IMG/VR virus record: IMGVR_UViG_3300022660_000062
Location: 1-64,000 of that record
Length of the DNA stretch: 64,000 bases
Reading direction: 5' to 3' (one strand)
Origin: a virus
Taxonomy: Duplodnaviria; Heunggongvirae; Uroviricota; Caudoviricetes
Part shown: positions 1,081 to 1,921 of the stretch, in pieces
Layout of the letters: each line of letters opens with the position of its first letter
Position numbering within the stretch: position 1 is the stretch's first letter
The notes under the pieces: generated by a model
The model's database searches: none
The model's input: only the letters and a program-made list of their open reading frames with translations
Told to the model about the DNA's origin: nothing
Program-made: the position numbers and the translations under genes

Positions 1081-1099
1081 TCAGTTCAATTGGTAGAGC
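1081..1099 (+). pseudogene. tRNA D-arm fragment (TCAGTTCAATTGGTAGAGC) upstream of homing-endonuclease cassette
   Basis: Isolated match to the canonical tRNA D-arm, with no acceptor, anticodon or T-arm. It is followed at 1113-1130 by the conserved junction motif TTGTATATATTACTATAA. Confidence 0.4.
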
Positions 1100-1151
1100 T
1101 AAAAACTTACATTGTATATATTACTATAACAAAGGTTATAGAGGTATTGCA

Positions 1152-1921
1152 ATGGTTGTTAAAAAATTGATATGTGAGTACTGCGGTGTTGAAATTTCAG
1201 TCTCTAACTACAGTAAACACATTCGACGACATGAGAAACATCCTGAATCTTTCGAGACTCCAAAATATCAGATCAAACATGAGGGCTTGAATTGTTCATT
1301 CTGTGGAAAATTATGTAAGAATCGAAATAGTTTAAGTAATCATGAAAGACTTTGTAGATTAAATCCTGATAGGAAAGCCAGTGCACTTGAACGTTACAAT
1401 ATCTCCGATCATCAAGTTTGGAATAAGGGGTTAACAGTAGAGAGTGACGAACGTGTTAAACAACACGCATTGAGTCGAAAAGGAAGAGAAGGAACATTCA
1501 AAGGTAAGCATCATTCTGATTCAGCAAAACAAAAACTTCGGGAAGCAAGACTAAATTATTTATCTGATAATCCAGATAAGGTTCCATATCTGCTTAATCA
1601 CTCCTCAAAACAAGTTATCCTGAATTATATTTTTCGGAGTTATTTGAAATTGAGGATATTCCACTCAAACATCATAAACAGATTTCCTACTACCAGTTAG
1701 ATTTCTACAATGATGAATGTATGCTTGATATTGAAATTGATGGTGAGCAACACTATGTGGACGAACGAATTGTTGAAAGTGATAAAAGACGATCTAGATA
1801 TCTAGAGGATCTTGGTTGGACAGTTTTTAGAATTCGATGGTCTGAGTATCAAAGAATGTCATTACAAGAGAAGCAAGAAGTTGTTAATCACATTAAAAAA
1901 CTAATAGATATGCGGCGCTAG
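1152..1921 (+). pseudogene. Homing-endonuclease-like gene (C2HC zinc finger + NUMOD3-like motif + DUF559/Vsr-like PD-(D/E)XK nuclease), interrupted by a -1 frameshift near 1595
   Basis: ORF 1152-1700 carries CEYCGVE...H and CSFCGKLCKNRNSLSNHERLC zinc-finger motifs and the NUMOD3-like motif FKGKHHSDSAKQKLREA. In the other frame, 1598-1921 encodes ...LDFYNDECMLDIEIDGEQHYVDERIVESDKRRSRYLEDLGWTVFRIRW, a DUF559-type nuclease signature. It is paralogous to the N-terminal parts of the ORFs at 13468, 15055 and 21881. Confidence 0.55.

Follow-up and report, generated by a model that had tools for sequence, protein, structure and literature searches.

Four paralogous endonuclease genes in the tRNA array of a human-gut phage are probably free-standing homing-endonuclease cassettes, which would cleave a standard tRNA gene close to its anticodon and bring along a linked replacement tRNA. 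The genes lie in a 64,000-nucleotide (nt) stretch of a Caudoviricetes virus (IMG/VR record IMGVR_UViG_3300022660_000062, positions 1 to 64,000), referred to here as the window. The phage that carries it is about 217 kb in size and is known from human-gut metagenomes; the same genes are present on one 216,635-bp contig. The tRNA array occupies positions 396–22635. The four open reading frames (ORFs), 1152–1700, 13468–14388, 15055–15726 and 21866–22564, are all on the + strand, as are all features of the cassettes given below. The reading is drawn from sequence comparison and a predicted fold.

The initial annotation had noted orphan 5' pieces of tRNA genes, here called stubs, in front of three of the four genes. 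We compared the 60 nt upstream of the promoter-like motif of each cassette with the 5' halves of 593 tRNAs by Smith–Waterman alignment. The z-scores were 17.0 (21866), 8.3 (13468), 3.3 (1152) and −0.4 (15055). The three pieces are thus upheld, two of them as strong stubs and one as a weak stub, and no stub was found in the 60 nt upstream of the motif of the 15055 copy.

The stub of the Thr cassette (21801–21835; 28/28 match to a tRNA-Thr) corresponds to positions 1–35 of a native tRNA-Thr(UGU). It runs from the acceptor arm through the D-arm and the 5' side of the anticodon stem to U32, U33 and anticodon bases 1 and 2. It is followed by a region with the promoter-like motif TTGTATATAAATATGCATAAG (21840–21858, motif scan), the endonuclease gene (21866–22564; 232 amino acids, or 227 from the ATG at 21881), and a replacement tRNA-Thr(UGU) of 86 nt (22550–22635; ARAGORN, and Rfam with 47.5 bits). 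The replacement tRNA has an unusual D-arm and a 14-nt variable region. The TAG stop codon of the endonuclease gene serves as positions 13–15 of this tRNA.

An empty counterpart of this site was found in a metagenome contig, L123. Its order is two small ORFs, a tRNA-Met, an RNA of about 260 nt, an intact standard tRNA-Thr(UGU) and ROOL, with no endonuclease gene. The intact tRNA-Thr begins with GCCGGTATAGCACAGTTGGTAGTGCAGCTGATTTGTAATCAGC and lies between the ~260-nt RNA and ROOL. The window stub is identical to it at 33 of 35 positions, and the two differences form a compensatory pair in the D-stem. From the third anticodon base onward, the window has the promoter, the endonuclease gene and the different, 86-nt tRNA-Thr(UGU), and then ROOL. 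That the stubs are what is left of standard tRNA genes is supported, and for Thr the L123 empty site shows it directly. The same arrangement is present at the same place in L090, where the endonuclease is 63% identical to that of the window and the stub is decayed. The Thr locus is therefore known in the filled state (window and L090) and in the empty state (L123), and the comparison with insertion-free relatives that the initial annotation had proposed bears out the insertion here. No empty site was found for the other three window loci. In L090, the entire 5' half of the downstream tRNA lies within the ORF, which ends at a TAA in the anticodon loop. The acceptor of the downstream tRNA in L090 and L053 is the same as that of the stub. 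A simple insertion that reuses the native 3' half is not supported at present, since the acceptor and anticodon stems of the replacement tRNAs in the window and in L050 differ from the stub.

Several other observations concern the surroundings of this locus. A tRNA-Thr of the 86–87-nt type also occurs in the T4-like contigs L013 (3744–3830) and L015, in which the ORF of an unrelated HNH endonuclease has its stop at the same D-arm TAG. A full-length ROOL RNA (RF03087, 281.9 bits) lies directly after the replacement tRNA-Thr at 22662–23344 (+), and its promoter-like start is kept in L090 and L123. The stretch between tRNA-Met and the Thr stub, at about 21542–21800 (+), is a conserved non-coding sequence of ~260 nt with no Rfam match. 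A 22-mer from it, CTTGGAGAATCGGGAGTGCAGG, is present in 39 gut-metagenome contigs, L123 among them; in most of the 39 it lies about 17 nt upstream of a tRNA-Leu gene. An exact 34-mer of this RNA had no match in IMG/VR.

The Leu cassette starts with a sigma-70-type promoter-like site (TTGATC-17-TATAAT, 13209–13237), which lies 15 nt upstream of the stub and is probably the promoter of the former tRNA-Leu gene. The stub (13252–13286, 21/21 match) retains an intact acceptor arm and D-arm (13252–13277), followed by a decayed anticodon-stem strand and a CTT end that corresponds to positions 32–34. Next come the promoter-like motif TTGTATATATTACTATAA (13290–13307, motif scan), a tRNA-Leu(UAA) at 13317–13453, and the endonuclease gene (13468–14388), whose 306-residue product has two zinc fingers, a NUMOD3-like motif and a PD-ExK nuclease (alignment, Pfam and PHROGs). 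The tRNA was missed by ARAGORN and is identified by Rfam (42.8 bits over 134 nt) and by its fold. It contains an insert of 49–50 nt (about 13352–13400) directly after U34, the tRNA position at which the Leu stub ends. The insert forms a hairpin of its own, is too short for a group I intron and has no terminal G. As the initial annotation proposed, this cassette appears to bring its own replacement tRNA-Leu: a full tRNA of matching type adjoins the stub.

Related Leu cassettes were found in three further loci. In L137 and L139, a Leu stub is followed by a variant tRNA-Leu(UAA) and an endonuclease gene. L135 starts with a tRNA-Leu(UAA) whose anticodon loop holds a 255-nt insert (position 33/34), and then has the Leu stub, the promoter and the endonuclease gene; Rfam found no group I intron in L135. 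The 49-nt insert was considered as a relic of the 255-nt insert and this was rejected, as the similarity is not significant (104 of 500 shuffles score as well).

The stub before the 1152 gene is decayed (1081–1108; 16/17 D-arm match, with a score above all 60 shuffles). It follows directly on a terminator-like hairpin (1047–1072), and consists of the D-arm (1083–1099), an A-rich remnant of the anticodon stem and CTT (positions 32–34); the acceptor arm is lost. L133 and L134 share this stub and retain different ancestral positions of it. The motif TTGTATATATTACTATAA recurs at about 1112–1129, identical to 13290–13307. Downstream, a tRNA-Lys(UUU) (1912–1989, ARAGORN and Rfam) overlaps the end of the endonuclease gene, whose TAG stop is formed by tRNA positions 8–10. 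The CTT end of the stub is compatible with Lys(UUU), and equally with any tRNA with U34. By sequence, a full tRNA of the type of the stub clearly lies beside the Thr and Leu cassettes; in the Lys case the match in type is no more than compatible. The fourth copy has the promoter-like motif TTGTATAATATGTTATATAA at 15014–15034 and encodes a protein of 223 amino acids with one zinc finger and a PD-ExK nuclease (15055–15726; alignment, weak Phage_endo_I match). The gene ends 6 nt before a tRNA-Ser(UGA) (15732–15826, ARAGORN), which lies directly downstream.

We surveyed the family in 80 viral-contig loci fetched with the family profile, together with several metagenome loci (L numbers). A search of deposited and cultured phage genomes gave no close relative of the window phage and just tRNA-sized matches. 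The family is almost confined to phage tRNA arrays: 71 of 76 non-redundant members have a tRNA gene within 1 kb. The gene end lies within −40 to +25 nt of the start of a same-strand tRNA in 34 of the 76, and 24 genes overlap the start of the next tRNA. Seven of the 76 use the tRNA bases T8-A9-G10 as a TAG stop. After complete tRNAs had been masked, a BLAST criterion identified 38 orphan 5' tRNA fragments in 438 kb. Thirteen of these are within 100 nt upstream of a family gene, where 0.33 would be expected (binomial P=7e-18). Most stubs, as read by eye, cover the D-arm plus the 5' anticodon-stem strand, with their ends at positions 33–36. For about 12 of 15 stubs, the directly downstream tRNA is of the same type (Thr, Ile, Phe, Asn, Met and Arg).

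The layout recurs in many unrelated phages, cultured ones included. In Kuttervirus PhaxI, a gene annotated as "endonuclease" overlaps a tRNA-Met and has a stub upstream. In the T4-like Dhakavirus IME341, an Arg(UCU) stub is followed by an ORF that runs through the 5' half of tRNA-Arg to a TAA in the anticodon loop. Since the ORFs in both L090 and IME341 stop at the anticodon-loop TAA, the duplicated segment is tRNA positions 1–35. Stubs resemble standard tRNAs of the same type. Copying of the stub from the downstream tRNA was rejected, because upstream regions rarely resemble the first 45 nt of that tRNA; only L046 does. The surveyed arrays have other features as well. Among independent stubs, a TAG stands directly after U33 in the T4-like loci L038, L055, L066 and L073, and a TAA in L033 and L049. 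L014 (3899–4761) contains an intron-like insert of ~200 nt in the anticodon loop of a tRNA-Asn, as well as a duplication that surrounds a small ORF and includes a tRNA-Thr stub of 49 nt. Rfam detects a group I intron beside a tRNA-Leu 5' fragment in L057 (2534–2724), and a GOLLD RNA is present in the related tRNA array of L051 (165–627).

The proteins form an uncharacterised family. The N-terminus has a NUMOD3-like motif and between one and four zinc fingers of the C2H2/C2HC type, and the C-terminus is a PD-(D/E)XK nuclease, of the T7-endonuclease-I type in one branch and of the DUF559/Vsr type in another. The four window proteins, which the initial annotation had suggested aligning, are paralogues with 29–35% identity on alignment. 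A finger of the form C-x2-C-x12-H-x3-C followed by NP is invariant among them. Its spacing is that of a C2H2-type zinc finger, C-x2-C-x12-H-x3-(C/H), and the family profile matches C2H2 finger arrays in the PDB (E=6e-8). In single proteins the Pfam zf-C2H2 match is below cut-off, and zf-C2H2_jaz is exactly at cut-off for 15055. NUMOD3 (PF07460) scores 11–14.7 bits in the window proteins, with a gathering cut-off of 20.4; precomputed PF07460 matches exist for some homologues. Paralogy, zinc finger and PD-(D/E)XK end therefore stand as first described, and the NUMOD3-like motif is weak.

The catalytic core of a 32-sequence family profile best matches T7 endonuclease I (E~8e-4), and the 15055 protein has a weak match to Pfam Phage_endo_I. 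The PD-(D/E)XK core fold is present, with the acidic residue, the (P)D motif and the (D/E)-x-K motif. An AlphaFold model has a predicted local distance difference test score (pLDDT) of 85.6 overall and >94 in the nuclease domain. The nucleases of 13468, 15055 and 21866 have PD...ExK or DxK and no DUF559-type motif. The C-terminus of the 1152 copy differs from the other three and matches DUF559/MTES_1575/RAP, with Pfam DUF559 above cut-off and the motif E-x-D-G-x-x-H, read as IEIDGEQH, in this copy only; the DUF559/Vsr-like end that the initial annotation gave it is thus confirmed. One branch has 467 homologues and the other 589, some of them in cultured phages (Kuttervirus and T4-like). Members are annotated merely as "endonuclease" or "hypothetical protein", and PHROGs names related families endonuclease, resolvase or homing endonuclease. 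A GIY-YIG (Seg-type) domain had no match in Pfam or PHROGs. The genes do not belong to the group I intron-encoded class, since Rfam gave no Intron_gpI match in window 1–25000 at E≤1, the insert has no space in which a ribozyme core could fit, and the ORF is followed by a complete tRNA.

In the mechanism that we infer, the endonuclease would cut one standard tRNA gene of a co-infecting cassette-free phage, in or next to the anticodon-loop positions. The break would be repaired from the cassette-bearing genome, and the cassette would spread by such homing. The left side of the break would be kept up to the cut, so that the first 33–36 bases remain as a stub directly upstream of the cassette promoter. 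Repair would copy in the promoter, the endonuclease gene and the linked full tRNA of the same type and differing sequence. The linked tRNA would presumably remain uncut and keep the decoding function, escaping through its differing sequence or, in the Leu case, through the interruption at the cut position. The stub would decay afterwards. The first insertion may stem from repair with homology on one side only. The initial annotation had endonucleases that target tRNA genes and leave the 5' tRNA stub behind, which agrees with our observations; it placed the break at the D-arm, and the stubs place it in the anticodon loop, at positions 33–36. Recognition of the D-arm is a guess. Four diverged paralogues, a patchy presence in relatives, and a pseudogene with intact alleles elsewhere are signs of the life cycle of a selfish endonuclease.

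Several points weigh against homing into tRNA genes. We infer cutting at the anticodon solely from where the stubs end. L123, the empty site, is a short contig (1,764 nt), and its flanks are just 77–80% identical to those of the window. The replacement tRNA-Thr of the window shares only the first four acceptor bases with the stub. A BLAST-detectable stub is present in only 13 of the 76 members, or about one in four with additions made by eye; most members simply lie between two intact tRNAs, and insertion need not leave a stub. Compared with other tRNAs of the arrays, the downstream ones show only a slight excess of divergence (11 of 21 in the lowest-scoring third), so that resistance through divergence is not established. 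The idea that replacement tRNAs are clearly non-standard was dropped in view of this weak trend. The 13.3-kb cassette has its tRNA before the endonuclease gene and with the 49-nt insert, and this tRNA-Leu(UAA) may be non-functional.

In an alternative origin, the stubs are nothing more than debris left as tRNA arrays rearrange rapidly (by unequal crossing-over or deletions), and the endonucleases fill free intergenic space without targeting tRNA genes. The fetched phage arrays hold many other fragments, introns and duplications, 25 of the 38 orphan 5' fragments are not beside a family gene, and the 15055 copy has no stub, like most of the family. Debris would not be expected to gather directly upstream of family genes, where stubs are enriched about 40-fold (P~7e-18). 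Nor does it account for most stubs ending at positions 33–36 and matching the downstream tRNA in type, or for filled and empty Thr sites that diverge exactly from the anticodon onward. We therefore regard this origin as quite unlikely. The stub might instead be retained as a working part, its D-arm acting as the −35 element of the TTGTATA promoter or as an element upstream of it, for example, or the stub acting as a homology arm, and would then be no passive relic. Here the block 1089–1127, which joins the 3' part of the stub to the promoter, is nearly identical in the window and L134, while the coding sequences are about 73–75% identical and nearby non-coding DNA differs. In the Leu cassette, TAGACA in the D-arm of the stub and TATATT at the junction form a sigma-70-like promoter (10/12); such sites in the region are no commoner than in shuffles. 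The Thr stub persists in four Thr-lineage relatives whose proteins are 55–63% identical, but it is decayed in L090, L093 and L004, with loss of the acceptor, a disrupted D-stem and an inserted hairpin. The majority of the family does without a stub, and T4-like members have a late-promoter box of their own downstream of it. A retained function is, on this evidence, unlikely.

Returning to homing into tRNA genes, a broader reading is possible, which we hold tentatively. The cassettes could be tRNA-replacing gene drives, each lineage of which destroys one standard tRNA gene at the anticodon and installs a cleavage-resistant tRNA of the same type, and repeated rounds of this could be a main source of odd phage tRNAs. 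If true, it would cover the altered D-arms, the long variable arms in Thr, Ile and Trp, and the insert of tRNA-Leu(UAA) at the cut position; the 49-nt insert would then be either a scar of immunity or a small intervening sequence of a new kind.

The 1152 copy is disrupted. The frame of its 5' ORF (1152–1700, 182 amino acids; Pfam, alignment), which stops at 1700, encodes the DNA-binding part, with two C2HC/C2H2-type zinc fingers and the NUMOD3-like motif. The DUF559/Vsr-like nuclease domain is open in the −1 frame at 1598–1921 (Pfam, frame reading), with an ATG-started ORF at 1721–1921. The initial annotation correctly invoked a −1 shift to join the two and placed it near 1595; DNA alignment places it in the A4 run at 1607–1610, which reads AAAAA in L133 and GAGAA in L134. 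The repaired 256-residue sequence finds an intact protein of 256 residues, P0121, which is 96% identical over the full length. Intact single-ORF alleles thus exist at 96% and 73% identity, and the window has a 1-base deletion relative to these. At least 22 contigs from ENA, JGI and Logan assemblies encode precisely the truncated 182-residue product; the deletion is therefore real and common in the phage population rather than a one-off sequencing error.

Decay and frameshift regulation had both been offered as explanations, and the sequence points to decay. Expression by programmed −1 ribosomal frameshifting, or as two products with separate functions, would suit the recovery of this allele on contigs from independent assemblies and the lack of further disruptions in either frame. 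No slippery heptamer of the form X-XXY-YYZ was found at 1600–1615, as read from the sequence; the intact alleles have one extra base in the A run; and the matches listed, 120 of the 589 homologues found, all have full single-ORF length and the zinc-finger and DUF559 make-up. That the gene is not dead is therefore highly improbable.

The initial annotation had treated the shared junction motif as a feature of the cassettes, and had stated beforehand that a generic promoter of the phage would count against this. A generic promoter-like motif is what we found. Sites of the motif precede the cassettes at about 1112, 13290, 15014 and 21840. TTGTATA with an A/T-rich box occurs 17 times on the + strand, mostly ahead of tRNAs and ordinary genes (288, 12575, 18176, 18472, 20729, 21441, 37943, 50306 and 56518). 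TTGTATAWWW occurs 10 times where 2.0 are expected, 9 of them on the + strand; only four sites precede endonuclease cassettes and five precede other genes or tRNAs. As these sites are mostly outside cassettes, TTGTATATA is a general promoter-like element of the phage and not a mark of the cassette. The 18-mer shared by the sites at about 1112 and 13290 is identical beyond what the generic motif requires, and may reflect shared ancestry or gene conversion between the two cassettes. In T4-like relatives, the position of the promoter-like motif downstream of the stub is taken by TATAAATA, the T4 late-promoter box.

The nearest system in behaviour is T4 SegB, a free-standing endonuclease in the T4 tRNA cluster that recognises a conserved motif of tRNA genes and drives preferential inheritance of the tRNA region (PMC2330249). 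Like the window family, it is encoded by a free-standing gene inside a phage tRNA array, and its target is tRNA-gene DNA. SegB is a GIY-YIG enzyme and recognises a T-arm motif, whereas the window family is PD-(D/E)XK and its breaks map to the anticodon loop. The SegB paper does not mention truncated or duplicated tRNA genes, neither word being found in its text (PMC2330249). The nearest homing enzyme in fold is I-Bth0305I, which is encoded in a group I intron of recA (PMC3239194). It belongs to the Vsr-like (EDxHD) homing endonucleases and, unlike the window cassettes, is not free-standing. I-Bth0305I is not known to contain zinc fingers or to be associated with tRNA genes.

I-Ssp6803I is the PD-(D/E)XK homing endonuclease of a tRNA-fMet group I intron and targets the anticodon-loop region. 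It shares fold and target with the cassettes, but its interrupted tRNA is restored by splicing; the window cassettes lack a ribozyme, and the function passes to a full tRNA gene of its own. T7 endonuclease I, the best profile match in the catalytic core, is a structure-specific junction resolvase without zinc-finger or NUMOD3 modules, and its gene is not mobile. Some integrase-borne elements use tRNA genes as insertion sites and restore the end of the tRNA, so that function is kept and a partial duplicate of the 3' end is left; the window cassettes have no integrase and leave the 5' end behind. Our literature search found SegB and general mentions of endonucleases near tRNA arrays, and nothing on this family, on the stubs or on the layout of stub, endonuclease and replacement tRNA. 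Homing endonucleases of tRNA clusters are already known from SegB; the present family is large, and no description of it was found. If the proposed mechanism is true, it provides a concrete explanation, open to testing, of why phage tRNAs turn over and have odd structures, a group of candidate nucleases whose zinc fingers would read the DNA of tRNA genes, and a simple annotation rule by which an orphan tRNA 5' half ending at the anticodon marks an endonuclease insertion.

Other features of the array are not part of the cassettes. A 556-residue ORF at 15928–17598 (+) has a weak TROVE (Ro60) match (E=5e-4, below cut-off), and near it, at 18039–18157 (+), is a weak match to the Y RNA-like YrlA (30.5 bits). 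A search of IMG/VR with the Ro-like neighbour protein found no relatives. At 2575–2660 (+) lies a circularly permuted tRNA-like module, made of variable arm, T-arm, 3' strand of the acceptor, a TAAT loop, 5' strand of the acceptor and D-arm; YrlA-type RNAs are built in this way. Together, the ORF, the YrlA-like match and the permuted module suggest a phage Ro/Y-RNA system. The Leu fragment at 2631–2649 was considered as a stub without endonuclease and was rejected, as it belongs to this module.

ARAGORN detects 21 tRNAs in the array, to which Rfam adds one intron-like and one partial tRNA. The partial tRNA, at 20651–20715 (+), was missed by ARAGORN (Rfam model positions 6–65, 39 bits), and the ARAGORN tRNA at 12054–12131 (+) has a two-base "anticodon"; both may be damaged or unusual tRNA genes. 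Two long, G+C-rich intergenic stretches between tRNAs, 651–1080 and 1990–2192 (+), contain no ORF and no Rfam match. Three tRNAs of types with a normally short variable region are unusually long: Ile(UAU) with 95 nt (19690–19784), Trp with 92 nt (2697–2788) and Thr(UGU) with 86 nt (22550–22635).

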